DNA of 34,974 bases from IMG/VR virus record IMGVR_UViG_2778261250_000007. The stretch is one strand, 5' to 3'. Both the position numbers and the translations under genes were made by a program. Below the pieces are notes generated by a model, which worked only from the letters and a program-made list of their open reading frames with translations, was not told the origin of the DNA and ran no database searches. Positions 14,930-33,733 of the stretch are shown in pieces. Positions within the stretch are counted from its first letter, which is position 1. Each line of letters begins with the position of its first letter. This stretch comes from a virus (Duplodnaviria > Heunggongvirae > Uroviricota > Caudoviricetes).

Positions 14930-15002
14930 AAAACTAGAATTTCCAAGTCTTCGCAGATATATTATGTGGAGTTTTCTCATTGACATTATCCTAGGTATCA
15001 GA

Positions 15003-16709
15003 ATGGAACATCTAAAGCAACTACTAAAAAAAACTGAATTTATCGAAAAATACGGCATTGGGAATGCACATCTATTATGGGCCTTAGGTTTATATTTGGA
15101 CGAATCAGACTTTGACAAATTAGCCTCAGATGGTTTGACTGACGGAGGTAATGATAAAAAAATAGATTTCATTACTGTAATAAATTCAACTTTATTTATT
15201 GCGCAAGGTTATTACTGCACCCAAGATAAATTGAAAATTGTTGCGCCAGCAAATAAAGCTTCCGATCTCAACACTGCTTTAGCATGGATTATTTCAGGTT
15301 CTGGTCAATCACCAAATGAAAAATTAAGAGCTAAAATTGCTGAAGTTAGAAAACTTATTGACGATAATGAAATAGAAGCTGTAGAGCTTCTATATATTCA
15401 CAATTGTGCTGAGTCAGAACACGTAAGAGTTGAATTAGAAACATGTCGTGACTATTTAGCAAATCGCTTCTCTAATAAAGAGATAGAAGTAACCTGCAAA
15501 GAGTTGGGCGTATATAGCCTTGAAAAATTATATATTGCACTTTCGCAACAAATTGTAGTAAAAGATGATATAATTTTTGATGGTACTATTGTAGACTCGG
15601 TAGAAGGTGATGGTTGGACCTCACGTGTTGGCTTCGCTAATGGCAGTTGGCTGAACTCACTTTTCAAAACCCACGGCGCTGAATTATTCTCAGCTAACTA
15701 CCGTGGTTTTATGGGGTTGAGTAAAAGAAGAAAAATAAACTCTTCCATTAGAAGTACGGCAGAGACAACTCCTAAAGACTTTTTTGTTTTTAATAATGGA
15801 GTATCAATCCTTACAACAAAATTCAGACAAGATAATAATAAGGCAATTTTAGAGGGTATATCCATTATCAATGGAGCGCAAACTACTGGTTCCATAGGCT
15901 CTGTGCAAGATATACAAAAACTTGATGGATTGAAAGTACTATGTAAAGTTATTGAATGCAATGACGCAGATAAAGTAAAAAAAATAGTTCAATTTAATAA
16001 TACTCAAAACCATATCACGACCTGGGATCATTATTCAAATAGTCCAGAACAAAAGCAGGTAGAAGAAGAGTTTTCGACCTTAGGCTATATTTACTCGTTA
16101 AAAAGAGGCTTTGAGAATACTGGTTCTTTATTTGGTATTGAGTCAGTTGCACAACCCTTAATAGCTCTACATGGAGATTATGCAAGCGCAAACAGGGGTA
16201 AAAACTATGTTTTCGACACTAAAACTGCTTATGACAATGCATTTCATGAATCAAAAGCCCAACATATTCTATGTGCATATACCATTTCGAAAGCAATAGA
16301 AAAAGTCAAGGCACAGATTAAAAATAAAGATAATAAAATAACATCTGATGAAGACAACTTACTTTTCCTGCAAAACCTCAAGTCTCGCTTCTTTTTGATA
16401 TCTATAGTCGGTGAAATTCTGGAGGAACTGGCCGACAAACCATTAAATAAAAAGTTTGTTAAATATAAATATAATACTTCACTTGCAACAAACAATTCGC
16501 TAGACGACTTAATTAACCTATGGTCGCCAGTTATCGCTGCCATTCTACCCTTTATCATTAGAGTTACAGGTCAAGATCTAACAACTTACTTATCTGAAAC
16601 AGAAGATCCTTTGCATACCGTTGCCAGTGAAGTTAAAAACAATCTCAGATCCTTAAAAGCGTTTCAACCTATAGAACCATTAAGGATCTTAGCTGAAAAC
16701 TTAGAGTAA
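15003..16709 (+). CDS. AIPR-family (abortive infection phage resistance)-like protein; AT-rich cargo gene between S and V
   Basis: 569 aa from ATG 15003 (an alternative in-frame ATG at 14964 gives 581 aa). The motifs LTDGGNDKKIDF near the N-terminus and INGAQTTGSI match my recollection of AIPR-domain signatures. Strongly AT-rich and inserted in an otherwise conserved late-gene block. Confidence 0.55.
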   Translation: MEHLKQLLKKTEFIEKYGIGNAHLLWALGLYLDESDFDKLASDGLTDGGNDKKIDFITVINSTLFIAQGYYCTQDKLKIVAPANKASDLNTALAWIISGSGQSPNEKLRAKIAEVRKLIDDNEIEAVELLYIHNCAESEHVRVELETCRDYLANRFSNKEIEVTCKELGVYSLEKLYIALSQQIVVKDDIIFDGTIVDSVEGDGWTSRVGFANGSWLNSLFKTHGAELFSANYRGFMGLSKRRKINSSIRSTAETTPKDFFVFNNGVSILTTKFRQDNNKAILEGISIINGAQTTGSIGSVQDIQKLDGLKVLCKVIECNDADKVKKIVQFNNTQNHITTWDHYSNSPEQKQVEEEFSTLGYIYSLKRGFENTGSLFGIESVAQPLIALHGDYASANRGKNYVFDTKTAYDNAFHESKAQHILCAYTISKAIEKVKAQIKNKDNKITSDEDNLLFLQNLKSRFFLISIVGEILEELADKPLNKKFVKYKYNTSLATNNSLDDLINLWSPVIAAILPFIIRVTGQDLTTYLSETEDPLHTVASEVKNNLRSLKAFQPIEPLRILAENLE

Positions 16710-16715
16710 CAATTC

Positions 16716-16748
16716 TTGGGTGGCATTAAAACGCCACCCAACCATTTT
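16716..16748 (+). terminator. Intrinsic terminator downstream of the AIPR-like gene
   Basis: ttgggtggc / gccacccaa, a 9-bp stem with an 8-nt loop, followed by ccattttat, directly after the stop at 16707-16709. Confidence 0.5.
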
Positions 16749-16761
16749 ATATAATTGATTA

Positions 16762-17205
16762 TTATTTCAACCATCCTATTAAAACATCATAAATATGTTT
16801 TTCAATCCGTTCATTATTGCCAAGTAAACGCCGCTCTGCATAGCGGACCACCGGGCCTTTGCAACTGACGCGATCACGCAGGCCGTAATGGTGAACGCGG
16901 GCAATGCGCTGTACGTTACCTTCAAACTGCACGCTGGCAGAATCGGCGCTGGCGGCAGTTTTCAGGTATTTTGTGGTGCGCAGCTTTGTAAACATCTGAC
17001 GTTTGATGCGCCCCTTTTTACTACGTGCTGTTACCCTTCGCGGTTCATAGCTGCTGCCATCAGGATTACGCTGCATCCTGATGTTCTGCTGCTGTGTCCG
17101 GCGCAGTTCCTGCGCCAGCTGGCGCATCATGCGGCTTCTTGCGGCTGGCTCCAGATTCGCCAGCAAGGCACTCAGCCAGTCGTCCACCTTCTGCAATTCA
17201 GCCAC
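16762..17205 (-). CDS. S: Tail completion protein S
   Basis: 147 aa; GTG start at 17205 overlapping the R stop; synteny R-S. Confidence 0.8.
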   Translation of the reverse strand: MAELQKVDDWLSALLANLEPAARSRMMRQLAQELRRTQQQNIRMQRNPDGSSYEPRRVTARSKKGRIKRQMFTKLRTTKYLKTAASADSASVQFEGNVQRIARVHHYGLRDRVSCKGPVVRYAERRLLGNNERIEKHIYDVLIGWLK

Positions 17206-17629
17206 GTTTCACCATCCATATTTCTTCAGGTTCATCGGGTTCCGCTACAGCTTCAACACTAGACACACTGCCGTCAGTGCTGACCAGCACACGCTCCGTC
17301 AGTTGCAGGTTAAGACTGATATCACAGACATCGTTGCGCAAAATATCCACCTCAAAGGTGAATAACTTTTCCCGTAACGCCGGGTTATTGATGGCATCAG
17401 ACTGGTTATCCCGCAGCCACAATAAAACCGGGGCCATCAACAGATTCTGGTCGCCGCTGAAATCCTCAATCACCACGTTCAGGGTGTAACGGTACTCCCA
17501 TGACATGGAGCTGGCCCCCGTAGCAACCAGCGAACCGTTATCCACAAACAGATGCAGTTTGTCCGGGTTATTGCGGACATAAGGCACCGCTTTATTGAGG
17601 GCGTGGCGCAGGGATTGTGGTTTGTTCAC
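17198..17629 (-). CDS. R: Tail completion protein R
   Basis: 143 aa from GTG at 17629 with AGGAG 8 nt upstream (GTG-NKPQSLRHALNKAV...). The track ORF starts 7 codons upstream at TTG. Confidence 0.8.
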   Translation of the reverse strand: MNKPQSLRHALNKAVPYVRNNPDKLHLFVDNGSLVATGASSMSWEYRYTLNVVIEDFSGDQNLLMAPVLLWLRDNQSDAINNPALREKLFTFEVDILRNDVCDISLNLQLTERVLVSTDGSVSSVEAVAEPDEPEEIWMVKRG

Positions 17630-17882
17630 TGTTTCGCTCCTGACACGCAATAATCATGTCCACTTTGTCTGCACAGACCGCCCAGGCGGCCTCCGTTTCA
17701 TCCAGCAATGCGTTCAGATCACCGTTAGTGCGCGGCGTTGCCTGATCCAGCCGACACGGCGTCACTCGCGGACACCCACTGACGGTAAGCTGCACCTCCG
17801 GTGAATGCCGGACGTTTCCGCAGCCGGATAATGTCAGCAGGCAAAGGAGTATCAGCCCAGCGGCGTAAATCCTCGTTCTCAC
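17592..17882 (-). CDS. lysC: LysC-like outer-membrane lipoprotein (Rz1-type o-spanin), embedded in and extending past lysB
   Basis: 96 aa with a signal peptide and lipobox (LLTLSGC). GTG start at 17882 with GAGGAA upstream. Lies in an alternate frame overlapping the 3' half of lysB and the start of R. Confidence 0.55.
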   Translation of the reverse strand: MRTRIYAAGLILLCLLTLSGCGNVRHSPEVQLTVSGCPRVTPCRLDQATPRTNGDLNALLDETEAAWAVCADKVDMIIACQERNSEQTTIPAPRPQ

Positions 17883-18153
17883 GTTTCAGTTCCTCAATCC
17901 GGCGTTGTCGTTGTCTCAGCAGTGCACTGGTCTGTTCTGCTTCGGCGTAGAGCCGCGCCTGCTCCCGATTGTTGGTTTCAGCCAGAATGGACAGACTGAT
18001 CAGCTGGCTATTTTTCTTCGTTAGTTCGTGCGCTTTACTTTTCAGCGCCGCGCGCTGCGTTTCGATGGTGTGGCTGGCGCTGTTAAGCCGCCACGACTGC
18101 CAGCCCAGCGCAACGAGTGCCAGCGCCGCCACTACCGCCAGCACACGTGTCAT
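17725..18153 (-). CDS. lysB: LysB-like inner-membrane spanin (Rz-type)
   Basis: 142 aa with an N-terminal TM segment (VLAVVAALALVALGW) followed by a charged coiled-coil region. ATG at 18153 overlaps the endolysin stop. Confidence 0.7.
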   Translation of the reverse strand: MTRVLAVVAALALVALGWQSWRLNSASHTIETQRAALKSKAHELTKKNSQLISLSILAETNNREQARLYAEAEQTSALLRQRQRRIEELKRENEDLRRWADTPLPADIIRLRKRPAFTGGAAYRQWVSASDAVSAGSGNAAH

Positions 18154-18665
18154 AGTCCAGCTCCTTTAAGGCACCAGGCCATCTCCCGCGCACGGCGGTT
18201 ATCCAGCCCCTGATTAAACACACCTTTTACATAAACCCAGCGCGGCAACTGTCGGCACGCATCCACCCAGCGCCGCTGATTGAGCAATTTAACCAGCGTG
18301 GAGCTGCAGGCATTGCCCGTCCCCACGTTGAAGGCAAACGACACCGTAGCGTCATACACCTTCTGTGGTGGCTGTTGCTTCACACACCTTTCCAGTGCCC
18401 GCTCCACACGTAGCACGTTGGAGATCAGCCCTTCTGCTGCCTGTCGTTCCGTGATTGTTTTGCCGGGAATGACGCCCGATGTATTACCAATGCCGTCGGT
18501 CCAGACACCCGCGCTGCACTGATACGGCTGCAGACGACAGCCTTCGTAATCGGCAATCAGTTTCAGCCCCTCCACTGAGGTGTGAAGCTGCTGAAAACCC
18601 GGCAGCGTGGCAGCAATAGCCAGCACGGCCCCGACAAGGCAGCGTTTAACGATTGATGGATTCAT
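18150..18665 (-). CDS. K: Endolysin (lysozyme, K position) with N-terminal signal-anchor-release-like segment
   Basis: 171 aa; hydrophobic N-terminus LVGAVLAIAATLPGF followed by a lysozyme-like body. Confidence 0.8.
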   Translation of the reverse strand: MNPSIVKRCLVGAVLAIAATLPGFQQLHTSVEGLKLIADYEGCRLQPYQCSAGVWTDGIGNTSGVIPGKTITERQAAEGLISNVLRVERALERCVKQQPPQKVYDATVSFAFNVGTGNACSSTLVKLLNQRRWVDACRQLPRWVYVKGVFNQGLDNRRAREMAWCLKGAGL

Positions 18666-18861
18666 AGTCCTCCCGCGAGATCTGCCCGTCGCGCAGAAGC
18701 TGGTAGGCTTTGTGTTTGTAGTACCAGTTGATAGCCAGCATCAGCACACCAATCATCAGGCCGCCCAGCGTTGAGGCATCCTTGATGGACAAATCGCCCA
18801 GCCAGGCCAGCACAACGGCGATGCAGTACGTGATAAAGGCGCTGATTCGCTCAAGCGTCAT
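18646..18861 (-). CDS. Holin (small two-TM protein)
   Basis: 71 aa with two hydrophobic helices and a charged C-terminus, immediately upstream of the endolysin with a 20-nt overlap. Confidence 0.6.
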   Translation of the reverse strand: MTLERISAFITYCIAVVLAWLGDLSIKDASTLGGLMIGVLMLAINWYYKHKAYQLLRDGQISREDYESINR

Positions 18862-18864
18862 AAT

Positions 18865-19068
18865 TCAGCCCCATAGCTGGACGGTCTGCACGGTGGTGGT
18901 GGTCGGAATGTCCGGCAGCTCCACCTGCAGCCCGTGAGGTAAAAAGGGGCCATATTCGGCAAGCCCCGGATTTGCCTTCAGTACCTGCTCCGTGACACCC
19001 TGCGTGCGCCCGTAATGACGCCAGCAAAGCGCGTCCACCGTGTCATACTGATGCGCACGCACTTTCAT
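18865..19068 (-). CDS. X: Tail protein X
   Basis: 67 aa (MKVRAHQYDTVDALCWRHYGRTQG...); ATG overlaps the L stop (ATGA). Confidence 0.8.
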   Translation of the reverse strand: MKVRAHQYDTVDALCWRHYGRTQGVTEQVLKANPGLAEYGPFLPHGLQVELPDIPTTTTVQTVQLWG

Positions 19069-19532
19069 CAGATAAGCTCCACTGTGCAGTGCGGCGCATC
19101 CTGCACCCGGCTGATGGCCCAGCGGGCGTCACGCCACAAATCACCGCTGGATTCCGCCAGTTCCTCGCCTCGCTTCACACCGGATGCCGTGGCGTCATAG
19201 TCCTGGTATCGTTCGTTGAGCATGGCGCGTGCCCAGCAGTAAACCGCGTTGAAATAGTGCTGAATGCGCTCACTTTTGCCGTCCAGCTGTTCCGCCGGAA
19301 CCTCAGCCAGCGACACATACCCCAGCATCTGCTGGCGTCTGCGAAACTCATACAGCTCTGCGTTGACCTCCGAAATTGCCGACAGCGCAACCTGCTTTAA
19401 ACGCGGCTGCGTCACCGTGCCGTCAGTGCGCATGACACTGCGAAACTCCGACAGGTCCACATCAGGCCAGAACGGCGTATTTCTAATGATTTCCGCCTGT
19501 TCCGGTGCCTGTTCTGGCGCAACAAACTTCAT
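19068..19532 (-). CDS. L: Capsid completion protein L
   Basis: 154 aa from ATG at 19532 (MKFVAPEQ...) with AGGAG upstream. The track ORF begins further upstream at GTG. Confidence 0.8.
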   Translation of the reverse strand: MKFVAPEQAPEQAEIIRNTPFWPDVDLSEFRSVMRTDGTVTQPRLKQVALSAISEVNAELYEFRRRQQMLGYVSLAEVPAEQLDGKSERIQHYFNAVYCWARAMLNERYQDYDATASGVKRGEELAESSGDLWRDARWAISRVQDAPHCTVELI

Positions 19533-19627
19533 GCTGCTTTCTCCTGAAATAGAGGGCGGTGGACGGGGTTTTGATGTGGCAGTGCCTTTCGCCACCCCGT
19601 GCCGCCCGTGCGCGGGGGCACGTTCTG

Positions 19628-20278
19628 TCAGCGGCTGTCATTACGCAGTCTGCGCTCCAGCTGCTGTTTGTCTTTTTTCACGCCACAGCGGGGATCGAGC
19701 TGTAACGCATGGTTGAGATGGTTAAGGGCAGAAGCCGGATTGCTTTCACTTAGGACAGCGCCAATCGCTTTATGCAGACGCGCTCGTGACTGGTCCGGCA
19801 TATCCAGACCGTCTGTCAGCTCCAGCGTCTGCAACAACAGATCGGCATCAAAGCCGGTGGCGGCAAGCATTGCGCTCTGCGCCGCGTCTGCCATTTCCTC
19901 TGCCAGCACGGTCTGCACATTGCGGTTACCCAGCGGCATCACCCAGCCATGACGCAGGGCATGACGCCCGATCTCCAGCGCCCCGGCATAATCTCCGGCA
20001 TCAATGCGCCACAGCATCACGTACATCAGCACGTCATCCTGCTGTGCGCCTCCAGCAGTCAGGACACCCTCTGCCCAGGCGGCGTACTTCGGCAGCAGCT
20101 CCACCTTAATTTCCGCTTTTTTCACCGTGGACTGAACGCCCTTGAGACGGCGGCGGTCTTCCGCCAGTTGCAGCAGCATCAGGTCATAACCCGACGCGTG
20201 GCGAACACTGCCGCCCTCGCGGGCGGCCTGTTCAGCCTGAACGCGCAGGCGATGCTGCCGTGCGGGACTCAGGCTCAT
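19628..20278 (-). CDS. M: Terminase endonuclease (small) subunit M
   Basis: 216 aa, ATG at 20278, downstream of N. Confidence 0.8.
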   Translation of the reverse strand: MSLSPARQHRLRVQAEQAAREGGSVRHASGYDLMLLQLAEDRRRLKGVQSTVKKAEIKVELLPKYAAWAEGVLTAGGAQQDDVLMYVMLWRIDAGDYAGALEIGRHALRHGWVMPLGNRNVQTVLAEEMADAAQSAMLAATGFDADLLLQTLELTDGLDMPDQSRARLHKAIGAVLSESNPASALNHLNHALQLDPRCGVKKDKQQLERRLRNDSR

Positions 20279-20281
20279 GGT

Positions 20282-21337: not shown

Positions 21338-21353
21338 CAGGTTTTGTGCTCCA

Positions 21354-22187
21354 TCAGCAATTGGTCAGAGTGTCAGCGGGGGCGTTACCGCCTGTTACAC
21401 GCTGGCGGTAGTCCTGGCGGCTGTCTTCATGACTCAGCTTATTCACCAGTTCGTTAAAGGCGGTTTGCTGCTCCTGCAGAGCAGTCTCCAGCTCAGACAG
21501 GCGTTCTTCCTGCTCAGACAGGGATTTTTCGGTGCGTGCGCTCAGGTTCTGCTGCTCAGTGGCGACCAGCTCCACGGCCTTATGCACATCAGCGAACCGG
21601 GCGTCATCGGACTGCTCTTTTTTGGTAAACAACGCCGTGACGCGGGCAAACAGGGACGGTTTGTCATCCTGGACTTCTTCCAGTTCGATCACCGTTTCCT
21701 CTGCAGCGGTAAAAAGATTGGCGGGATTCTGCTTGCGGTTTGCCAGCGGGTTATGGGCTGCACTGGCGCTGAATGTCAGCATTTCCGTACCCAGACTGGC
21801 AGGATCATCAGTGGCAGCCAGGCCAACCAGGTAGGCTTTGCCCGTATCAGCGAACTTCGGGCTGACTTCCATAGAGGTGAATAATTTCTGGCCTTTTTTC
21901 ACCAGTTCCACCAAGGACTCCGTTGGCTCAACGTCGGCATACAGCGCCATCTTGCCTGCCAGCGGACCTTCCGTGATTTCTTCAGCAAACAGCGCCGTCA
22001 CTTTGCCGTAGCGGTTAAAGGTGCTGTCCGGCAGATAAGACTTGATGTGCTCAAGGTTAATCAGCGCGGTATACACCGCCGGGTTGTAGCTGGCTGCCAT
22101 CTGTTCCAGCCATTCACGCTGGATTTCGCGTCCGTCGGTAGTGGCACCTTCCACCCCGATGCGAAAACGCTTTGCTTTCACTGTCAT
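21354..22187 (-). CDS. O: Capsid scaffolding protein O
   Basis: 277 aa with an acidic coiled-coil C-terminus; ATG at 22187; divergent from P. Confidence 0.85.
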   Translation of the reverse strand: MTVKAKRFRIGVEGATTDGREIQREWLEQMAASYNPAVYTALINLEHIKSYLPDSTFNRYGKVTALFAEEITEGPLAGKMALYADVEPTESLVELVKKGQKLFTSMEVSPKFADTGKAYLVGLAATDDPASLGTEMLTFSASAAHNPLANRKQNPANLFTAAEETVIELEEVQDDKPSLFARVTALFTKKEQSDDARFADVHKAVELVATEQQNLSARTEKSLSEQEERLSELETALQEQQTAFNELVNKLSHEDSRQDYRQRVTGGNAPADTLTNC

Positions 22188-24096: not shown

Positions 24097-25127
24097 TGGG
24101 AAAGAGTAAGAAAAACCGCGCTGCGGCGACGAAACAGAGCCAGCATAAAAATCAAACTTCAGCCGAAGCTTTCAGCTTTGGTGATCCCATTCCTGTACTG
24201 GACCGCCGCGAACTGCTGGACTATGTGGAATGCGTACAGACGGATCGCTGGTATGAGCCACCCGTAAGTTTTGACGGACTGGCACGCACCTTCCGCGCTG
24301 CCGTGCATCACAGCTCCCCGATTGCAGTAAAATGCAACATTCTGACCAGTACCTACATCCCTCACCCGCTGCTCAGCCAGCAGGCTTTTTCACGTTTTGT
24401 GCAGGACTATCTGGTATTTGGTAACGCCTACCTGGAGAAACGCACGAACCGCTTCGGTGAAGTTATCGCCCTTGAACCGGCCCTGGCAAAATACACCCGA
24501 CGCGGGTTAGACCTGGAAACCTACTGGTTTGTGCAATACGGTATGACAACACAGCCGTATCAGTTCACGAAAGGCAGCATCTTTCATCTGATGGAACCGG
24601 ACATCAACCAGGAGATCTACGGCCTGCCCGGTTATCTTTCTGCCATCCCATCCGCTTTGCTCAACGAGTCCGCCACGCTGTTCCGCCGCAAGTATTACAT
24701 CAACGGCAGCCATGCAGGCTTCATCATGTATATGACCGATGCCGCGCAGAATCAGGAGGATGTGAACAATCTCCGCAATGCGATGAAAAGCGCCAAAGGC
24801 CCTGGCAACTTCCGCAACCTGTTTATGTACTCGCCTAACGGCAAAAAGGACGGGATTCAGATCATCCCGTTGTCAGAAGTCGCGGCGAAGGATGAGTTTC
24901 TGAATATCAAAAATGTCAGCCGCGATGACATGATGGCAGCGCATCGTGTGCCGCCGCAAATGATGGGGATTATGCCGAATAATGTTGGGGGGTTTGGGGA
25001 TGTGGAGAAGGCAAGTAATGTATTTGTTCGTAACGAACTTATCCCCTTACAAAAACGTATCGAACAATTAAATCAATGGATAGGAAACACAATTATTAAT
25101 TTTTTACCATATTCTCTCCAAAGTTAA
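24096..25127 (+). CDS. Q: Portal protein Q
   Basis: 343 aa from ATG at 24096 (MGKSKKNRAAATKQ...), overlapping the P stop. Confidence 0.9.
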   Translation: MGKSKKNRAAATKQSQHKNQTSAEAFSFGDPIPVLDRRELLDYVECVQTDRWYEPPVSFDGLARTFRAAVHHSSPIAVKCNILTSTYIPHPLLSQQAFSRFVQDYLVFGNAYLEKRTNRFGEVIALEPALAKYTRRGLDLETYWFVQYGMTTQPYQFTKGSIFHLMEPDINQEIYGLPGYLSAIPSALLNESATLFRRKYYINGSHAGFIMYMTDAAQNQEDVNNLRNAMKSAKGPGNFRNLFMYSPNGKKDGIQIIPLSEVAAKDEFLNIKNVSRDDMMAAHRVPPQMMGIMPNNVGGFGDVEKASNVFVRNELIPLQKRIEQLNQWIGNTIINFLPYSLQS

Positions 25128-25139: not shown

Positions 25140-25162
25140 GGGTGCATAATGTTTATGCACCC
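25140..25162. terminator. Bidirectional terminator hairpin between convergent Q and the TIR gene
   Basis: Perfect 10-bp inverted repeat gggtgcataa / ttatgcaccc with a 3-nt loop, flanked by T-rich sequence on both strands. Confidence 0.45.
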
Positions 25163-25167: not shown

Positions 25168-25785
25168 TTACCAGTTAAAAATTGATGAGCTGCGAATTGC
25201 AGGAACATCCGATGGATTTCGTTTAGCAGCTGGTTCCATCAACTTACGCTTATTAAATGCCTGATCAATATAATACTCAGGATTTTTAATAAAGACAGAG
25301 TATTTTACCAATGCACAATATACGTCAGAGTCATTATAATGGGGAACTGTTTTTTCATAAACATGATTCTTTCTAACCAGATAAGGCAAATAATAATCAT
25401 ATCCCAAACCTGGCGTTCTTAGACTTATAGAACATCCGCATGATGGATCTGCACATACTGCAGGAGTAAACACACTGTCGTAAATTTCATCTCTGATAAC
25501 ACCAATTAGACCATTATAGTTTTCTCCCCAGAGTGATGCTTGAATTTCAGTGTTTACAAATGGACGATTTTTGGTTTCCGTTCCAATAAGAACGACAGTA
25601 ACCGTTGAGTCTTTTAAAAAATCCTCACGAATAGTCCTCATTATTGTTTCATCAGTGTTAGTTGTACTAATGTCACCATCACTTACCGACTTATCAATAA
25701 ACGATTCTCCTCCGAATAAATCAATAATCTCATCTTTGAGATCTTGTTCGTTAGCATGATGATAACTAAGAAACGTCTTATGCAT
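25168..25785 (-). CDS. ThsB-like TIR-domain protein (TIR_like/DUF1863 type)
   Basis: 205 aa. N-terminal TFLSYHHANEQD and central STVTVVLIGTETKNRPFVNTEI resemble my recollection of Bacillus ThsB (VFFSFHYQDV and TSVTCVLIGSQTFNRRWVRYEI). ATG at 25785 preceded by GGAGTG and overlapping the upstream gene's TAA (TAATG). AT-rich. Confidence 0.7.
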   Translation of the reverse strand: MHKTFLSYHHANEQDLKDEIIDLFGGESFIDKSVSDGDISTTNTDETIMRTIREDFLKDSTVTVVLIGTETKNRPFVNTEIQASLWGENYNGLIGVIRDEIYDSVFTPAVCADPSCGCSISLRTPGLGYDYYLPYLVRKNHVYEKTVPHYNDSDVYCALVKYSVFIKNPEYYIDQAFNKRKLMEPAAKRNPSDVPAIRSSSIFNW

Positions 25786-26516
25786 TATTCACTCCATTTA
25801 TCAACATTTATATCAAACTCTTTGACTACCTTATCATTGAAGAAATCGTTTACTTCTTTAAAACCTTCCAATACTTGACTAAAATGATAATAATGCTTTT
25901 GTATAATACTTATAGGGGTTAAATGATACGGCAATGATATAAATTCGCCGTTAGGGTCTCTATCCTTTGTGGTCACTTTATCATGATCTGAAACATATTT
26001 ATGCCATCTCCGATAATTATTTTGATGTTTTGTTAAAAAAGAGTTTAAGGTTTTCAAAATTTCATTTGAAAGTAAATACAGTTTTTTATCTCTTTTTTTC
26101 TTCACATCTAGTAATTTCATTTCATCTCTAATGAATTTATAGCACTCATAATATGAGTTTAAAACTTCTTCAATTGAGTCATAATTCGGATCAAATTTAA
26201 ATAATGTTCGCTTCGTATCCAGATAATTTTTTACGCTCTTTTTAAAAAGAAGATCAGACTTATTTAGTAAAATATTAATACCACCAAAACTAAGTTGCTC
26301 CAATCTCAATGAATATCTTTGATGAAATGCACCGACCAGCAAGATATAAGCAACTAAAAATAGTATTAATACTGATAAAAAAGCACGAATTATGCTTACA
26401 TTTGACATGAAATTAACTATAAACCACCATTTTTCAAACGGTGAAAACGGAATGCTCCCCATGATAATAAGTAGAAGAACAAAGATACAACTCCATAAAA
26501 CCCACAATCTGTACAT
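25785..26516 (-). CDS. Two-TM membrane protein with a ~170-aa helical cytoplasmic domain; candidate effector partner of the TIR protein
   Basis: 243 aa from ATG at 26516 (RBS AAGGA). TM helices LWVLWSCIFVLLLIIMGSIPF and IIRAFLSVLILFLVAYILLVGAF. The soluble domain has no motifs I can assign (no Macro or SIR2 hallmarks). AT-rich; translationally coupled to the TIR gene. Confidence 0.6.
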   Translation of the reverse strand: MYRLWVLWSCIFVLLLIIMGSIPFSPFEKWWFIVNFMSNVSIIRAFLSVLILFLVAYILLVGAFHQRYSLRLEQLSFGGINILLNKSDLLFKKSVKNYLDTKRTLFKFDPNYDSIEEVLNSYYECYKFIRDEMKLLDVKKKRDKKLYLLSNEILKTLNSFLTKHQNNYRRWHKYVSDHDKVTTKDRDPNGEFISLPYHLTPISIIQKHYYHFSQVLEGFKEVNDFFNDKVVKEFDINVDKWSE

Positions 26517-26566: not shown

Positions 26567-26668
26567 AACCCTCTTCTGATATTACCCTCTACTACAGTAA
26601 CCCATCACATGACCTCCGACTTATCAGAAGACTAGCCAAACTTTCTCAATCAAATCAGGTTGCGCGCG

Positions 26669-26687
26669 CTCGTATCCCCGCCACGCC
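26669..26687 (-). other. Candidate cos (cohesive-end) site of the P2/186 family
   Basis: The minus-strand sequence GGCGTGGCGGGGATACGAG matches the first 13 nt of the 186 cohesive end as I recall it (GGCGTGGCGGGGAAAGCAT; P2 is GGCGAGGCGGGGAAAGCAC). Exact termini not established. Confidence 0.4.
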
Positions 26688-26756: not shown

Positions 26757-26891
26757 CTTAGCAAAAACGATCCTCAAACGATCATGCGATCTCATGCGGC
26801 ATAGACATGCACTACAGAGCTAACGCCTCGCAAGGGCTCGTTGTTCAACCTTGCTGACGCCAGAAGCAAGTTCAGACGCCAGCAACGTTTC

Positions 26892-27125
26892 TTAATGCAG
26901 CCAGCTGTCGTCTTCCCACACCTTCTGCATAATTTTCATCACTTGTTTTCTTTCTTCGTCCAGTTGCAGTCCGGTTAGTTCCACACCGTTAGAGCTACCT
27001 TTGCGAATGCGAATTACCGTTTTGGGATACAGGGGGCGCAGATTGCGGTAAAGCTCGGATTCAAGGGCGTCCAGGGTAGACTGGCTAATCTTCTGCTCTT
27101 TATCGATCATTATTTCAATGCGCAT
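26892..27125 (-). CDS. DinI-family protein (SOS-associated; 186 tum-region-like)
   Basis: 77 aa from ATG at 27125 (RBS GAGGTG): MRIEIMIDKEQKISQSTLDALESELYRNL...VWEDDSWLH, resembling the DinI start MRIEVTI... and C-terminal W-E-x-D-D-W. The track ORF is longer (101 aa). Confidence 0.7.
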   Translation of the reverse strand: MRIEIMIDKEQKISQSTLDALESELYRNLRPLYPKTVIRIRKGSSNGVELTGLQLDEERKQVMKIMQKVWEDDSWLH

Positions 27126-27135: not shown

Positions 27136-27324
27136 TCAGCTGATGACATCCATTGAGCGGTTGTATTCGTGGGTTCTGATTTTTGCCATGAGTTCATCAG
27201 TCAATTCAGAAACCCACTGCAGAGCCAGCCCCTTCTCTTCATCACTACACTCACTAGCCGCTACAAGCTTAAGAAAAAAATCAATGCGCTGGAGCTTCAA
27301 AGACTCCAAAAAATAGTCCTGCAT
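27136..27324 (-). CDS. Small hypothetical protein, first gene of the LexA-controlled unit
   Basis: 62 aa from ATG at 27324 with GGAGGA upstream (MQDYFLESLKLQRIDFF...). No recognisable domain. Confidence 0.4.
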   Translation of the reverse strand: MQDYFLESLKLQRIDFFLKLVAASECSDEEKGLALQWVSELTDELMAKIRTHEYNRSMDVIS

Positions 27325-27365
27325 CTTTCCTCCTATGACACCACACGCAACACTGTATGTATAAC

Positions 27366-27385
27366 CACTGTTTATATTTACAGTA
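27366..27385. promoter_or_regulatory. LexA (SOS) box
   Basis: cACTGTttATATtTACAGTA matches the LexA consensus TACTGTATATATATACAGTA at 17 of 20 positions (CTG-N10-CAG intact). It lies about 45 bp upstream of the small ORF and DinI-like gene. Confidence 0.6.
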
Positions 27386-27477
27386 TATAATAATCTTACT
27401 GATGTAAAACGTTTTTTTACGTTCATCAGCCTGATATGCCTGGTATTATTAAGAGCACGAATTGTTAATCCGCGTAA

Positions 27478-29892
27478 TTAATACAGGTTCCGCCACTGAT
27501 CATCTTCCTGCAAACGCTGGTTCCGATAGAAGATACGCAGGCCTGCTCCTGACGGAATACTGCCTCCGCGAAGGAGTAAATCGACCTCTTTCTCGCTGCC
27601 ATCAAATCCTCTGGACTTCAGCTCATACACGAGCTGCAGTCGCTGATGGTCTGTAATTCGCTGTTTGTAGTCTTTACGCCGTTTCGGTTTCACCAGGCGT
27701 AACCTTGCTGCCAGTTCCCGGCGCTCTTTTTTGCTCATACTGTGCAGGTAATCGTGCAACTCCTTGTCATCCATGCTGGTAATGTCCGTTCTGGGGTCCC
27801 CATCAGCTGATTTATCTTTCTCCTGTTGGTTCAAATTTTCAGCAAGGGGACAGTTATTGCCACGAGTCCAAGGGGCGCAAGCGCCCTGGTCGGCTGCCGC
27901 CTCCTGAACGTCAACGGCCTTACGAACCATTTTCCACTTCACCGCATGAGTGCAGATCTTGCCCTCTGCAATGGGTGACCAGATGCCATAAATACGAATA
28001 CCGTGATCGCCATATGCGGTCGGTTCTTCGTTGATTTCATAAGCAGTTCTGATGAGGTGATATTTGCGGGGAACCAGTACGCCGCCCTGCTTCATGATGT
28101 AGGTGGCAAAACAACCAGCATCAGCAGCAGCCAGGATTGCATCAAGGCGCGGGTTATCCAGTACCGGCGCACCTGCTTTTTTGTCCCCCTGTTGCCTTGC
28201 CGCCTGACCAGCCAGCAATCGCAGTTCACGGTAAGCCTGACGCCCCGGAATGCCAAAGAAGCGGAATTGCTGAACACGATGCAGAGACGCCCAGGCATTA
28301 ACGTATTCAGCGTTATCACGCAGGGATTTACCCGTTTCCTTGCTGATCTCGCCAGCCAGACCACGCCCGTCAATGTTCTTACTGATGTATTTCGCGATGT
28401 AGCTTGTTGGCGTACCTTTGCGCGGGTTTATCAGCTCAGACTTAAAGCGTGGTCCCGTGTTATTACCCAGCTCCTCGCGGTCTTCACGAATGGCAAACTT
28501 ACGCAACAAAGCAGTAATGGCGCGGCGATCTTTTTTGCGCATAAAACACAACAGGTGCCAGTGAACTGTACCGTCATGATGCGGCTCAGCCACCCGCACG
28601 CCATACCAGCGCAATCCGGCTTTGTGCATCGCCTTACGAAATGCAGCAAACATGCCGACCAGATAATCACTGCTTTGTCTTACCGTCGTATTTGTCCAGG
28701 TCGGGTTGGGCCTGCCGTTATTTAGCGTGGAATGGAAACGTGACGGACAGGTGATGGTGTAGAAAACGGCGCAGTCACCACGCATTTCCGCGATAAGCTC
28801 CAGACCTTTAACACAGGCCATCATCTCATTGCGGCGATGCGCAGGGTTGCTGCTGCTGGCGTTTACCACATCCTCCATGTCCAGCGTGTCGCCGTCTTCG
28901 TTCACCAGTTCATGAGAACGGAAAAACTCCAGCGACTTACGGCGCTGCTCACGTTTATGCATCACGGCTTCATAGCTGACATAGGGAGATGCTTTTTTGC
29001 TGACCAGGCAAACAGCACGCAACTGCTCTTCCCGCCATTCGCAACGCATCTTCCATAATTTCCGGTACCACCAGTCGGCGCACAACATACGCGCCAGCGA
29101 ACCCGGAATGAGTTCATAAGGCACGGGTTTACGGCGGTTTCTTTTCCGGCGGAGTTGCTCAAACGCAGGCGGTATGACATCCAGTCGCAGGGTTTCTGCT
29201 GCCACCTTTTCCCATGTCTTGCGGATTTCTTCAGGCTTAACGTCATCGGTGGCATACAAATCGCCACAAGCTGCATCAAGGCACATGCTCATATGCGCAG
29301 CAACAAGGGTGGACAGGCGTTTCACCTGATCCTGACTCATTTCAGGCAGAATCAGCAGGCCGTCCAGCCCTTCATGGCTTGCCATAAAGCGAAAAGAAGT
29401 GGATAGCTGACTGTCGCGTACATGCTCCAGCCGTTCCAGACATGGCTTAATCGTCTCACGCAAATAGCGGGAATAAGCCTTTGGCCTGCCAAGGCTGCTG
29501 AAGTATTCAATACGTTGCATCAGCGGCTTGCTGATATGGGAAGGCTGGGCATTGACGTCCGCCAGAATGACCATATCTGGATTAAAACGCTGCTGCTCAT
29601 GCGCCAGCTTTGCCCGACTAATGAGCTTATCCTGCTCCATTTCGCGCTGGACAGGATCACGGGATTCATTAAAGAAATAACGCTCCCAGACCTGATCACT
29701 CAGTGCCTCGCGGCGCAGCTGTTCCTGCTCGTTATCGACAGCGTACAGAGTGATCAGGTTTGAAAGTGCAGAAACCGGCGCAACTTCCGCCGGGTCCAGA
29801 TAAGGGTTAATGGCCTTTTTCGGGCTGTTCCATGAGAACGATGCGGCAGCCTCGTTAAAGCCGCAGCAGTTGTTCATATCGGCATGGCTCAT
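27478..29892 (-). CDS. A: Replication initiation protein A (rolling-circle endonuclease)
   Basis: 804 aa, ATG at 29892; size and position as P2/186 gpA. Confidence 0.85.
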
Positions 29893-30746
29893 GCACGTAC
29901 TCCGTACACGGCAGAACTATCCACGCCACGCGAATAATCAAATCCCACCCAGCAGCGCGGCCCGGAAACAGCAATGATTTCTGTTGCTGATTTACCCTCG
30001 CCAGCTGCCACACCGATGCTGCGTTTTGCCTTGATGTAGTGGTGAGTAAAATTGCGATACAGCGAACGGATCAGGGATGTGTCACTGTTAGAAACAATGA
30101 CCGGATGTCCTTCTGATGACCGATGTTCAAGAACAGATGCCAGGTGATACTGGTCATCTTCAGTGAAACCATCAGTGTGATAGCCGGAAAACTTACCGTC
30201 ATACGGCGGATCGCAATACACCACATCCCCCGCCTTCAACATCGCCAGCGTTTCATCAAAGCTGGCGCAGATAAACGTTGCTCGCTGGGCCTTTTCTGCA
30301 AATGCGCGAATTTCTTTTTCAGGGAAATACGGATTTTTATAATTACCGTAGGGAATGTTGAAATGCCCGCTCTTGTTATAGCGACATAAACCACGGTAAC
30401 CGTGACGATTGAGATACAGGAAATATACCGCTTTCATGAAATCAGTAATTTCAGTGGAGTAATTAAACTCCTGCCTTATGTTGTAATAAGCCACCTCCCT
30501 GTTTGCGATCTCAAATAAAACTCTGGCGCGAGATATAAACGATTCACAATCAGCAGCAACCTTTTTATAGAGGTTGATTAAATCAGGATTAATATCCGCA
30601 ACCAGATAGCTGGGGTAATCCGTCTCCATCATCACAGCACAGGAACCCACGAAAGGTTCAACCAGTCGCGGGCCAGCAGGAAGGTGTTTTTTCAGTTCGG
30701 ACATAATGGCGGTTTTATTTCCCGCCCATTTCAGGATGGTGCTCAT
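29889..30746 (-). CDS. DNA N6-adenine methyltransferase (Dam-like, D12 class)
   Basis: 285 aa from ATG at 30746 ([11 protein letters not shown]...), with motif I PFVGSCAV and motif IV DPPY. RBS GGAGGTG. The track ORF extends 20 codons upstream. Confidence 0.8.
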
Positions 30747-30970
30747 ACAGCACCTCCGTTGTAATGTTTGCCTTTCAGCTCTGCGATTTCCTGACAGGTA
30801 ATGCAAAGCTGCACCCCCGGAATGGCACGGCGGCGTGCTGGCGGAATTGGCGCTTCACACTCAACGCAAAGCACGCGGGACACGCCCGGCGTTTTGGCAC
30901 GGGCAGCACGGATATGACGTTGGCGTTCTTCTTCAACTCGCTGCTGTACGAGATCCATTGCATCAGCCAT
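30743..30970 (-). CDS. TraR/DksA-family C4 zinc-finger protein
   Basis: 75 aa with CVECEAPIPPARRRAIPGVQLCITC (C-x2-C ... C-x2-C). Confidence 0.6.
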   Translation of the reverse strand: MADAMDLVQQRVEEERQRHIRAARAKTPGVSRVLCVECEAPIPPARRRAIPGVQLCITCQEIAELKGKHYNGGAV

Positions 30971-31203
30971 CAGTGGATCTCCTGCGCTTCGTTCTGGATT
31001 GCTTCAGCAGTCACACGCAGCAGTTCTGCCGCTTCGACGTGGTTTAGTTGGCGGGATGTGATATGACACGCCAGGTTATCAAGGCGAGCTGCCATTGCTT
31101 CAGCCCTTGCCCGGCGTTCTTCCAGACGAGCCTCTGTCAGTAAAATATTAAGCCCTGCATCATCCGGTCCGGTTTTAGTCGTGAGGGTTTCAATATTACG
31201 CAT
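30970..31203 (-). CDS. Small early-region protein (DUF2732-like, recalled)
   Basis: 77 aa from ATG at 31203 with AGGAG upstream. Confidence 0.45.
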   Translation of the reverse strand: MRNIETLTTKTGPDDAGLNILLTEARLEERRARAEAMAARLDNLACHITSRQLNHVEAAELLRVTAEAIQNEAQEIH

Positions 31204-31270
31204 AATCAATTCTCCTGAATTTAGATAAAGGGATGCCCGGCGGGTTTACGCCATTAATTTCATTAGTTGG

Positions 31271-31612
31271 TTAATTCGGCATGGTTAGCCGTCTGGGAAA
31301 TAAGCTCACCACTGCACGAAAATGATTCATTGCTTTAATCAGCTCCCGCTTTTCGTCAGTGGTCAGCTCATTAATGCTGATGCTATGACGTTCAGCTGGA
31401 ATTTTTGCCATAAAGAATATGGCAGCCAGTGCCCGTTTATTTTGTTCATTATTGATATCCCGTGGATCACGCATATCTTTAATAAACCGCTCAAGCTCTG
31501 ACTCAATATTCATGCCAAAAACTTTCGCCCTTAACTCCGCAATGTGATTAAGTCCATTCAGGCGTTCACCGGGGCTTAATGGAACAGTTGCTGCAGCGCC
31601 ATTAATTGCCAT
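31271..31612 (-). CDS. Hypothetical early-region protein
   Basis: 113-aa ORF with ATG at 31612; no recognised domain. Confidence 0.5.
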   Translation of the reverse strand: MAINGAAATVPLSPGERLNGLNHIAELRAKVFGMNIESELERFIKDMRDPRDINNEQNKRALAAIFFMAKIPAERHSISINELTTDEKRELIKAMNHFRAVVSLFPRRLTMPN

Positions 31613-31634
31613 ACTTCATATCCCCCAAACGCAG

Positions 31635-31859
31635 CTATCGTTCTTTGTTCTTACGGTAACGCTCAAGAGGAGATACATTTTTTCGTATCGTCTCTTTAAC
31701 CTGCTCTCCCCGTAAAAACGTCCCATCCTTTAACGTGAAAAAGTAACTGCCATCGCCCGACAATGACGGATAGCAACAGAGCAAATCATCTTCAGGTACT
31801 GAATAACTCTCCCCTCTGTAACGAAACTGATAAACCACTTCACTTTCTGCCGCATACAT
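31635..31859 (-). CDS. Hypothetical early-region protein (DUF2724-like, recalled)
   Basis: 74 aa, ATG at 31859 (MYAAESEVVYQFRYRGESY...). Confidence 0.5.
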   Translation of the reverse strand: MYAAESEVVYQFRYRGESYSVPEDDLLCCYPSLSGDGSYFFTLKDGTFLRGEQVKETIRKNVSPLERYRKNKER

Positions 31860-32026
31860 TTGGACTTTCTCCGTTTCCTCGTGGTCAATTCAGACAGCAA
31901 TTCATCTTGTGAATGACATGGATGCCAGCGTTTTCCATCCTCACCCGTGATCCAGCCGTGACCGTAGTGCATTGCCGGACTTTGTTTTACCAGCAGCGAC
32001 GCAAATGATGGTTCTTTCGTCAGCAT
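31730..32026 (-). CDS. Possible small early protein overlapping the previous gene in another frame
   Basis: 98 aa from ATG at 32026, directly downstream of cII. It overlaps the 31635-31859 ORF by about 130 nt, so at most one of the two may be fully correct. Confidence 0.25.
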   Translation of the reverse strand: MLTKEPSFASLLVKQSPAMHYGHGWITGEDGKRWHPCHSQDELLSELTTRKRRKSKCMRQKVKWFISFVTEGRVIQYLKMICSVAIRHCRAMAVTFSR

Positions 32027-32033
32027 AAGCACC

Positions 32034-32543
32034 TCACAGCAAACCGAATGAAGCACCGAGGCCAGTCACGGTATCAACTGCACTCGCCATCGCAGGATTA
32101 GCCTGTAAACGGGCCTGCAATGAAACAGCCGCCAGCGCCATCAGTCGTGTTACAGAGTTAATGCTGCTGATAGCATCACGACGACCTGCACTGGTTTTTA
32201 CATCGCCAGATACCGCACCTGCAGCAACACGCCCGATCTCTGCGGTTGCACTCATGACGTAATGTGGCAGTTTCTCTTTTGCTACCTCATTAATCGGTAC
32301 ACATGGCAGACAATGAATCTGTGCCAGAAAACCATCTACCAACGTTGAATCTTCAGTCAGATCGGTAAGCAGCCAGATTTCTGGTGCGGTTAATAAATGA
32401 GGTTGAGCTGGGTTCAGCTTGTTCCGCAGAATCTGCACATTCATGCCCGCACGTTCTGCCAGTTGCACCAGATTGTGGCGCAGTGCGAATGCACGACAGG
32501 CTTCATCAAAATGTGGATGTTTGGAAACTTGGTAATCAAACAT
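32034..32543 (-). CDS. cII: Phage regulatory protein CII (186-type)
   Basis: 169 aa from ATG at 32543 ([45 protein letters not shown]...) with GGAG upstream. Confidence 0.7.
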
Positions 32544-32607
32544 GGTTTTCAACTCCGAACTTATCGCAAAATCGAACTCAGCGTCTTATTGCGAAAATAG
32601 ACGTCTA

Positions 32608-32811
32608 TTAAGCAGACAAAGCATCAACAGTCAGAGCAGCCAGGTTAATCATTACCTTTTCACGTTTTTTGTCTTTACGAAGACGATGACGAGGTAGTCG
32701 GCCATCAGCCAACATGTCGTTAATCGTATCAATAGAAAGGCCAGTCAGTTCGCTATAACGTTCGATTGTGACATGTGGTGTATTCAGAGTAATTGAAATG
32801 TTAGGTGTCAT
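32608..32811 (-). CDS. Apl/Cox-like small HTH DNA-binding protein (excision/lytic regulator)
   Basis: 67 aa, ATG at 32811, first gene of the lytic operon divergent from cI. HTH-like segment [22 protein letters not shown]. Confidence 0.6.
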
Positions 32812-32900
32812 AAGGCAACATTCCTTCTAGATATGGCTTGTGGCGAGCCGTTGTTTGTCGTGATTAGTAGTGAAGGCTCCAAAAGAACACTTCTGGTTCA

Positions 32901-32929
32901 ACTTTAAGATCGCTTTTGGAATCTGTCAA
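32901..32929 (-). promoter_or_regulatory. Candidate early lytic promoter (pR/Pe-like), -35 TTGACA / -10 TAAAGT, within a repeat-containing operator region
   Basis: Minus-strand TTGACA (32929..32924), 17-nt spacer, TAAAGT (32906..32901). Plus-strand TTTTGGA copies at 32914 and 32934 flank the -35, with a third TTTGGA at 32945. Confidence 0.4.
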
Positions 32930-32956
32930 CGAATTTTGGATTTCTTTGGAGGACTT

Positions 32957-33526
32957 GTGGATTTCAATAGCGGCGGTAAGAAAGCCATAGAACGTTTAGT
33001 TGAAGCATATGGGTTCGGTACTCGTCAGGCTCTCTGTGATCATTTAGGTGTTTCTAAGAGCACTATGGCAACGCGCTATATGCGTGATATTTTTCCAGCA
33101 GATTGGGTAATCCAGTGCGCCCTTGAAACGGGCACCTCGCTTAATTGGCTAACAACAGGGCATGGTTCAAAGCAAGCATCAGCAAATACAAATACTATAG
33201 AAGTAGAAAAATATTTATTGTCTGATGGAGCATTGCAGAAAGACGGTTTTTATATTTTTGATAAGGGATTTCTACCCTCTACGTTTAAAAAACCTTTTGT
33301 CATCACAGATAACAATTCTGAATTTATTTGTGATAAAGAATTTGATGATATACGTGATGGTAAATGGGTAATAAGTATTGATGGCGAAATAACGATCCGT
33401 GACATTACTCGTTTACCCGGTGGAAGAATCTTCGTCGAGGGTGGAAACAGAGCCTTCGAATGCAAGATAGAAGACATTGAAATAATTGGTAAAATTATAA
33501 GTTTAACAGTCAAGTATGTTAAATAG
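32957..33526 (+). CDS. cI: CI-type immunity repressor (186 CI-like)
   Basis: 189 aa from GTG at 32957 (strong RBS GGAGGA): (M)DFNSGGKKAIERLVEAYGFGTRQALCDHLGVSKSTMATRYMRD... The track ORF starts 29 codons upstream at a GTG without an RBS. Confidence 0.7.
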   Translation: MDFNSGGKKAIERLVEAYGFGTRQALCDHLGVSKSTMATRYMRDIFPADWVIQCALETGTSLNWLTTGHGSKQASANTNTIEVEKYLLSDGALQKDGFYIFDKGFLPSTFKKPFVITDNNSEFICDKEFDDIRDGKWVISIDGEITIRDITRLPGGRIFVEGGNRAFECKIEDIEIIGKIISLTVKYVK

Positions 33527-33541
33527 TACCGGGAGGAAACT

Positions 33542-33733
33542 ATGCTTGGTAAGGTATTTTTTGTGGTTTTGTCATGTTCTTTGTTATTAAACCCACTAAC
33601 TACCTATGCTAGAAATTATCCCTGCTCAGGGAAAAAGGGAGGTGTTTCTCACTGTACCTCAGATGGCAAATTCGTTTGCAATGATGGAACTATTAGTAAA
33701 TCCAAAAAAATCTGTACTAAAAACTCACGATAA
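33542..33733 (+). CDS. Small secreted Cys-rich protein (moron candidate) between cI and int
   Basis: 63 aa, ATG with strong RBS GGGAGGAAAC. Signal peptide [23 protein letters not shown], then a 40-aa mature region with four Cys and many Lys. AT-rich. Confidence 0.5.

Follow-up and report, generated by a model that had tools for sequence, protein, structure and literature searches.

The window analysed here, a stretch of 34,974 nucleotides of viral DNA (Caudoviricetes; IMG/VR record IMGVR_UViG_2778261250_000007), carries three conspicuously AT-rich islands within a P2-like prophage. They contain, in order, a large gene of the AIPR family, a pair of genes for a transmembrane (TM) protein and a TIR-domain protein (thsG and thsB), and a gene for a small cysteine-rich protein of the YdcA family that follows the repressor gene cI. 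An original prediction, made from the letters of the sequence, had described the islands as morons recently acquired from a lower-GC donor pool. We find it very probable that the three islands are three documented accessory slots of the P2 family, that they hold an AbiU-type gene, a type VI Thoeris system and a YdcA-family protein, respectively, and that they are exchanged as cassettes. Their limits, drawn by comparison with relatives, are the following.

14870-16828: island 1, 1959 bp, in the slot between S and V (P2 'orf30'), limits by alignment with relatives.
About 25058/25105-26654: island 2, between Q and dinI (Q-DinI), in the cos-adjacent gpQ-gpA hotspot, limits by alignment with relatives.
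32863/33166-33861: island 3, in the cI-int slot, an AT-rich immunity and cargo segment; megablast homology is gone over 32863-33861.

The genes that they carry are listed with their GC (guanine plus cytosine) content and the same value at third codon positions (GC3).

15003-16709, plus strand: AIPR-family gene, an AbiU-type single-gene abortive-infection candidate of 568 amino acids, antisense to the late operons; GC 0.345, GC3 0.264.
25168-25785, minus strand: thsB, encoding a ThsB-type TIR protein of 205 amino acids (PF08937, PADLOC ThsB); GC 0.354, GC3 0.248.
25785-26516, minus strand: thsG, encoding the putative effector, 243 amino acids, with N-terminal TM helices and a helical C-terminal domain; GC 0.286, GC3 0.258.
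32870-33526, plus strand: cI, encoding a 186-type CI repressor (Phage_CI_repr, 3e-31; Phage_CI_C, 5e-29; the RefSeq start is at 32957); GC 0.382, GC3 0.315.
33542-33733, plus strand: gene for a small Cys-rich protein of the YdcA family, 63 amino acids (NF007463, phrog_6000), coupled to cI through a Shine-Dalgarno sequence; GC 0.354, GC3 0.297.

Composition, limits and occupancy of the islands

On its gene content and sequence matches, the window is an Escherichia coli 186/P2-like (Peduoviridae) prophage at the rybB/ybjL site. An E. coli chromosome, NZ_OZ501612.1, is 99.9% identical to the whole window and 100% identical in those parts that served as direct queries, and the identical locus is present in RefSeq as a complete P2/186-like prophage between rcdA and ybjL. 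The small RNA RybB (RF00110, 105 bits) lies at 2700-2778, on the edge of the prophage with ybjL on one side and ogr on the other, and marks the region of attachment; it was the sole match of an Rfam scan of the whole window, which found no RNA element within the islands. Pfam families and RefSeq annotation reveal the features expected of a member of the Peduoviridae, namely collinear late genes, gpA replication, a CI-type repressor and a tyrosine integrase. The minus strand reads ogr, D, U, T, E, FII, FI, G, H, I, J, W, V and then S, R, lysB, K, Y, X, L, M, N, O; the plus strand carries P and Q, followed by dinI, a small open reading frame (ORF), A, dam, fil, cII, apl and then cI and int.

The GC profile along this genome, computed in 200-bp windows, is far from uniform. 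The backbone (n = 124) averages 0.546 (standard deviation, sd, 0.047), with just two of its windows below 0.42, and islands 1, 2 and 3 stand at 0.34, 0.32 and 0.374, that is 4.4, 4.9 and 3.7 sd lower, or 18-22 GC points under the backbone. The strong AT-richness of the three patches, first noticed in the letters of the sequence, is borne out both by this profile and by the GC and GC3 of the individual genes. That their surroundings are GC-rich is true of the structural genes (GC 0.51-0.61, GC3 0.51-0.75, with the exception of the tail-fibre assembly gene G at 0.47 and 0.44) but not of the neighbours of island 3: cI has a GC of 0.382, apl of 0.41, and the early region generally reaches just 0.43-0.53. 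Island 3 had in fact been drawn too narrowly, as the lone small gene, when the whole immunity segment including cI is AT-rich. More generally, the patches are real but comparison with relatives places their true borders further out than the genes first named. Homology to Klebsiella phage KP12 ends at 14869 and picks up again at 16829, and in KP12, as in most of the E. coli relatives, V and S are just 68 bp apart. At Q, homology to five relatives stops between 25057 and 25104, and on its right side island 2 has its junction (26655-26662) directly beside the cos core. At island 3, positions 32703-33165 retain just weak (69%) similarity to relatives. Two additional, moderately AT-rich patches, absent from the first list, were also observed: the 5' part of an orphan Dam-type methyltransferase gene (29889-30806; GC 0.43-0.44 in 400-bp windows over about 30201-30800) and the small ORF beside dinI (27136-27426, GC 0.40).

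The slots were surveyed across 5426 complete E. coli genomes. The flanks of the S-V slot are present in 1043, with the AIPR island in 5 (island-only query) to 9 (flank-plus-island query, which needed at least 80% coverage). The Q-DinI flanks are present in 1290, with the Thoeris island in 42 (98-100% identity). A 335-bp segment carrying the YdcA-like gene occurs in 631 genomes, including BL21(DE3), at 90-100% identity: island 3 is common and roughly as diverged as the backbone. Other S-V sites are empty or occupied by DUF6216, DUF2971, AAA-ATPase, P-loop NTPase or hypothetical genes, and in the five cargo-bearing variants that were fetched the cargo is antisense to the late genes and has a GC of 0.30-0.35. 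Five phage relatives have five Q-DinI cargos (a Hypoth_Ymh protein, an AIPR protein, retron St85, a frameshifted gene and three hypothetical genes), and the E. coli genomes add HipA with HIRAN, SieB, DprA, PIN with HNH, AIPR with HEPN, and more. The cI-int slot holds a gene for a 558-residue 'chromosome segregation ATPase' in KP12 and vB_EcoM-813R9, and for a 349-residue hypothetical protein in 4LV2017. All three positions show what defines an accessory hotspot of the P2 family, unrelated genes between conserved core genes in close relatives. The islands also assort independently: the AIPR and Thoeris islands occur together only in NZ_OZ501612.1 (1 of the 5426 genomes), and NCTC9008 combines the Thoeris island with a different S-V cargo. 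Presence/absence polymorphism at the same junctions, proposed at the outset as a check, was found at all three slots, and the idea of exchangeable horizontal cargo is supported by these frequencies (S-V 5-9 of 1043, Q-DinI 42 of 1290) and by the alternative cI-int genes.

Proposed cassette structure, transcription signals and the meaning of low GC

The junctions of islands 1 and 2 contain several elements that bear on how cargo is exchanged.

14912-14929, no strand assigned: TGT-N12-ACA dyad TGTATGAAACTCTATACA, its centre 55.5 nt upstream of the V start codon.
16716-16741, plus strand: terminator-like hairpin between the convergent AIPR gene and S; the stem has 9 bp, 6 of them GC pairs, and is followed by a T-rich tail.
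16762-16828, minus strand: cassette-borne 3' end of the essential gene S, the last ~22 codons; GC 0.26 against 0.58 for the rest of S.
25058-25127, plus strand: cassette-borne 3' end of the portal gene Q, likewise essential; the last 66 nt have a GC of 0.24 against 0.52 for the rest.
25140-25162, no strand assigned: terminator-like hairpin GGGTGCATAATGTTTATGCACCC between the convergent Q and thsB; 10-bp stem.
26566-26539, minus strand: promoter-like site upstream of thsG, TTGACT-16-TATTAT, 10 of 12 positions; a consensus match only.
26669-26687, minus strand: cos core, reverse complement of the P2 cohesive end at 14 of 19 positions, or 20 of 22 with the flank.
26811-26893, no strand assigned: second cargo slot, from cos to dinI (A side), empty here as judged by comparison with relatives.

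The dyad, presumably the Ogr/Delta activator box of the late promoter PV, lies 55.5-57.5 nt before the V start in 6 of 6 S-V variants, empty or filled, within surrounding sequence that is unrelated. Across variants, the C-terminal ~20 codons of S have a GC of 0.26-0.36 against 0.56-0.58 for the rest of the gene, the corresponding values for Q are 0.21-0.35 against 0.51-0.52, and each alternative cargo comes with a different AT-rich C-terminus of S or Q. Because these C-termini vary with the cargo, the exchange units reach into the coding sequence of virion genes, and because the cassettes carry phage-functional sequence they are expected to circulate as units among P2-like phages. We thus propose that cargo would be swapped as cassettes, with recombination end-points in the conserved core (the V start, the RYAER(R/Q/K)LLG stretch of S, the 3' end of Q, and cos), and that each cassette would bring its own AT-rich version of the phage elements. 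The cassette-borne S and Q C-termini and the PV box might mean that cargo exchange is constrained by, and perhaps co-adapted with, the virion genes.

A moron, in the sense of Hendrix and Juhala, lies between phage genes and is transcribed independently of them, from a promoter and to a terminator that belong to it. Each island had been credited with promoter-like and/or terminator-like elements of its own, and this stands only in part. The terminator-like hairpin of island 1 is convincing, but the scan gave no promoter match upstream of the AIPR gene; island 2 has both the 10/12 site and the hairpin, which lies at the place where terminator tQ is annotated in P2. In island 3, the small gene starts 15 nt past the cI stop behind a GGGAGG Shine-Dalgarno sequence, so that there is no room for a promoter of its own. 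Promoter-like matches in the three regions were in no excess over shuffled controls (5 against 7.1, 12 against 7.7 with an sd of 3.2, and 3 against 4.4), and these counts were not used as evidence of cassette autonomy. A gene pair of E. coli ACN001 identical to that of island 2 (see below) is reported to be active when cloned under its native promoter (bioRxiv 10.64898/2025.12.03.692087).

It remains to be asked what the low GC means. That each island was acquired recently from a lower-GC donor, its composition dating the transfer, was the original interpretation, and we now consider it unlikely. The size of the GC deficit speaks for it; islands 1 and 2 are moreover rare in related prophages and 99-100% identical where found, which fits a recent spread within E. 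coli, and distant relatives occur in low-GC organisms, namely Priestia (ThsG), Streptococcus/Enterococcus phages (TIR) and Moraxella, Acinetobacter and Haemophilus phages (YdcA). However, the nearest of these low-GC relatives are ~31-39% identical (ThsG, TIR) or match over ~34-38 residues (YdcA) and are not donors; no donor was identified for the islands. Homologous ThsG-ThsB pairs were found in a P2-like prophage of Serratia, on a mobile element of Klebsiella michiganensis and in the chromosome of Cedecea. Their proteins are just 50-74% identical, and the pairs have a GC of about 0.31-0.37 between flanks of 0.41-0.58: they are equally AT-rich in GC-rich contexts, with no drift toward the host. 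The composition of the Priestia pair matches its AT-rich surroundings. The five alternative S-V cargos are likewise AT-rich, the cassettes hold phage-specific functional sequence (the S and Q ends and the dyad), and island 3 is as common and as diverged as described above. Since AT-richness is stable across deep divergence, low GC is no clock for transfer; from these sequence comparisons it is a persistent property of a shuttling gene pool, not a sign of recent arrival, and low GC in such slots should not be taken as evidence of recent transfer.

Cargo of the three islands

The AIPR protein of island 1 matches Pfam PF10592 at 93.3 bits (cut-off 25), the PADLOC AbiU profile over residues 118-526 (5.1e-28) and phrog_1841, 'Abi alpha-like', from end to end (7e-150), and is named 'AIPR family protein' in RefSeq; a PDB sequence search with the protein returned nothing. 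Its N-terminal TDGGNDKKID may represent a D...(D/E)xK nuclease motif. Single-protein abortive infection by a nuclease-like AIPR/AbiU-family protein would be its most likely function. According to a 2026 review, AbiU is a system of one protein, through which phage transcription is delayed; the protection is modest, and the fold predicted for it resembles that of nucleases. The exact AIPR protein is widespread: it is found in 777 blocks of the assembly collection, and among the matches listed it sits in the S-V slot of P2-like prophages in 8 of 8 other assemblies, in prophages whose tail fibres differ. It shares 30% identity, over its full length, with the AIPR paralogue found in the Q-A slot of Klebsiella P2-like phages. 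Assignment to MzaE of the MZA system was rejected, the score against NF041935 being 52 bits for a cut-off of 1050 and the gene being solitary between V and S, with no Mza neighbours.

The small protein of island 3 scores 115.8 bits against NCBIfam NF007463, above the equivalog cut-off of 93, and matches phrog_6000 at 2e-34; it is a 'YdcA family protein' in RefSeq, with homologues that carry PF27300. It has a signal-peptide-like hydrophobic N-terminus ending in TYA, followed by a four-Cys mature part. By tblastn, this Cys-rich core is 71-76% identical in Moraxella, Acinetobacter and Haemophilus phages. In Haemophilus phage HP2 (NC_003315), an unannotated 60-residue ORF at 2420-2602 starts at the cI stop, between cI and orf1/int, and its product has a signal-peptide-like N-terminus and shares the C.DG..S.SK..C core with the YdcA-like protein of the window. 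In the window, the small secreted YdcA-family protein would be translated from the lysogenic cI-int transcript and be expressed in lysogens, and the gene looks like a long-standing, lysogen-expressed part of one type of immunity module, not a recent moron. No functional study of the YdcA family was found in the literature, and a role in cell-envelope conversion or in exclusion is a guess only. It is tempting to go further and see in it an ancient secreted P2-family factor, acting for instance in envelope modification or superinfection exclusion; we regard this idea, and with it the related reading of co-adaptation between cassettes and virion, as possible but doubtful.

The same gene speaks for the notion that the islands serve the lytic or lysogenic cycle of the phage itself, or host virulence and conversion, instead of anti-phage defence: it is not annotated as a defence gene, would share a transcript with cI and has kept the same position in HP2. 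P2 hotspots are also known to hold genes unrelated to defence, for example those for partition systems or for cytolethal distending toxin (PMC9122126). For the islands taken together we nevertheless judge this quite improbable. Islands 1 and 2 are dispensable, most relatives lacking them and empty S-V sites being found, both match defence families, and the island 2 sequence is reported, in the preprint cited above, to protect MG1655 from phage. The early guess that the cargo is defensive in nature was a good one for two of the three cargos, the AbiU-type gene and the Thoeris pair.

The cargo of island 2 is the Thoeris pair. ThsB matches PF08937 (ThsB_TIR, 1e-14, 55 bits against a cut-off of 21) and the PADLOC ThsB model, and its NRPFVNTEI aligns with NRRWVRYEI of Bacillus cereus ThsB (6LHY/9B7D), which sets FVNTEI opposite WVRYEI, the catalytic glutamate motif. 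The thsG gene lies upstream of thsB and overlaps it by one base. ThsG gave no match in Pfam, PADLOC or NCBIfam and no informative structural neighbour; its AlphaFold2 model (predicted local distance difference test score, pLDDT, of 84) has N-terminal helices and a helical domain. Its search returned 39 homologues, mostly from Enterobacterales, and a ThsB_TIR gene directly follows thsG in 7 of 7 contexts (including this window, an avian pathogenic E. coli (APEC), Priestia at 39% identity, Serratia, K. michiganensis and Cedecea). The 1511-bp cassette has 100% nucleotide identity to E. coli ACN001 (NZ_CP007442.1, 865236-866746), and residues 1-173 of the window ThsB are the TIR sequence given in Table S1 for IMG gene 2638504641 of that strain. 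Table S2 of the preprint (bioRxiv 10.64898/2025.12.03.692087) lists the ACN001 effector as 'DUF6650 and TM', its system as type VI and as defending MG1655, and its ThsB as activated with T7. The DUF6650 label for ThsG rests on this annotation and on a single precomputed match, to the ThsG homologue P0026. Because the cassette is identical to the validated ACN001 pair, the TM/TIR pair is, by way of that identical sequence, a known and experimentally supported type VI Thoeris system.

By analogy with what is reported for the identical sequence, the TIR protein ThsB would sense infection and make a cyclic ADP-ribose signal, which would activate ThsG, a membrane-anchored DUF6650 effector, and lead to growth arrest or membrane breach. 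The preprint states that type VI TIRs make 2' cyclic ADP-ribose (2'cADPR) and that external 2'cADPR arrests the growth of cells with type VI systems; ThsG is modelled there as a hexameric tube, and its TM-bearing versions are presumed to breach the membrane. That the pair does not signal at all, the TIR being a stand-alone NAD-depleting effector or the pair a toxin-antitoxin system with a non-Thoeris TM protein, is hardly credible: the failure of ThsG to match Pfam or PADLOC would allow it, but the TIR is of the ThsB type, the overlapping gene order is conserved as adjacency from E. coli to Priestia, and both the validation of the identical pair and the arrest by 2'cADPR reported in the preprint speak for a type VI system.

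A few related observations concern this pair. A tblastn search of the phage collection with the TIR protein found only Streptococcus/Enterococcus phages, at 31-36% identity, and no P2-like phage with this TIR; next to one of these matches lies another kind of effector, of the DUF4231/SLATT type. In E. coli APEC E19057 (CP126934.1, 6001-8803), a deleted prophage at the same chromosomal site has kept thsG-thsB: the equivalent of window position 24625 is joined to that of 5174, and the late genes from the 3' part of Q to the end of T are lost. In that strain, the defence pair outlived the decay of the prophage. The same Thoeris cassette is found, at 98% identity, at 241-1740 of NZ_CP019257.1, a 36-kb E. 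coli plasmid record, and CP019275.1 (37 kb) is a plasmid record with P2-like genes; both may be P2-like phage-plasmids.

Several points weigh against the reading of the islands as defence cargo exchanged in cassettes. That the dyad upstream of V is an Ogr box is presumed from what is established for P2 late promoters, and the mechanism of recombination was inferred from break-points. An hmmscan of ThsG and 26 homologues against PF20355 (DUF6650) gave no match at E <= 1. The source for type VI Thoeris is a 2025 preprint, and 2'cADPR was shown for three type VI TIRs, the text seen not saying whether that of ACN001 is among them (bioRxiv 10.64898/2025.12.03.692087). For island 1, the lactococcal AbiU lowers plating 10- to 100-fold, a modest protection, and a literature search found no experimental report of phage resistance conferred by this AIPR protein.

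Backbone and relation to known P2-family systems

Outside the islands, P2-like phages of Klebsiella and E. coli, among them KP12, 4LV2017 and vB_EcoM-813R9, match the backbone DNA at 91-98% identity, and the phage backbone itself looks shared across genera. Over the aligned stretches, identity to Klebsiella pneumoniae phages is ~91-95%. Between 3165 and 25057 the GC is ~0.55-0.57, higher than the 0.51 of ybjL, the E. coli gene on the flank. The tail-fibre gene H contains internal direct repeats of ~168 bp (window 11330-11940; 85-88% identity when aligned to itself at that offset). The rybB / ybjL-rcdA site is also filled in vB_EcoM-813R9 and by the deleted prophage of APEC E19057.

The original observation was correct in essence, and all that is substantial in it was known before; little is added here. 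The TO region, the Z region and orf30 have been described as three loci of horizontal transfer in P2-like phages (PMC3091744). The defence hotspot at gpA-gpQ, next to cos, was defined by Rousset et al. (2022), who validated there the AC1 system of a TIR plus TM proteins (PMC9122126). Moura de Sousa et al. (2026) reported hotspots at GpA-GpQ, within the tail genes, where 16% of the systems lie, and in the integrase-to-primase interval, with 8%, listed AbiU among P2 cargo and described a rapid swapping of cargo (PMC13586616), with which our cassette-exchange reading agrees. What is new is the placement of the ACN001 type VI Thoeris system as P2-hotspot cargo flush against cos; the words 'prophage' and 'P2-like' have zero occurrences in the preprint text that was searched (bioRxiv 10.64898/2025.12.03.692087). 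The ACN001 system is still annotated as 'hypothetical protein' and 'TIR domain-containing protein' in RefSeq, and the placement may be of use for annotation. The prophage is also a worked example of P2-like prophages as platforms that shuffle anti-phage systems, a single lysogen having both a gene of the AbiU type and a type VI Thoeris system that has been validated.

How the islands compare with known systems can be summarised slot by slot. All three lie in positions that match hotspots of the P2 family (the TO region with old and tin, orf30, and integrase-to-primase), which share with them an extremely diverse, AT-rich and defence-rich cargo. The position of the cargo relative to cos differs from that of P2: here it lies on the Q side, whereas in P2 old and tin lie on the A side and Q abuts cos. 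The A-side slot, empty in the window, is filled in KP12, 4LV2017 and ST11-VIM1phi8.4 with ~845 bp that include a 678-bp gene. The immunity region is of the 186 type, with CI, Apl and CII, unlike the C/Cox type of P2. The YdcA-like protein resembles its family (NF007463 / PRK10040; PF27300) in its length of ~60 residues, its hydrophobic N-terminus and its four Cys; its gene is prophage-borne and coupled to cI, whereas ydcA is chromosomal. The AIPR protein shares with lactococcal AbiU (AbiUi) and the AIPR family the organisation as one large protein with an AIPR domain, but its similarity to the AbiU prototype is only remote (E = 5e-28 to the profile). The phage AC1 system likewise combines a TIR protein with membrane effectors in the same gpA-gpQ hotspot, and a TIR-made signal has been proposed for it (Rousset et al. 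2022, PMC9122126); compared by description only, not by sequence, it has three genes, for two TM proteins and a TIR, as opposed to two here. The closest counterpart of all is the ACN001 type VI Thoeris system, which differs from the window pair at no sequence position and has the same gene order, with the effector gene upstream of thsB and overlapping it.

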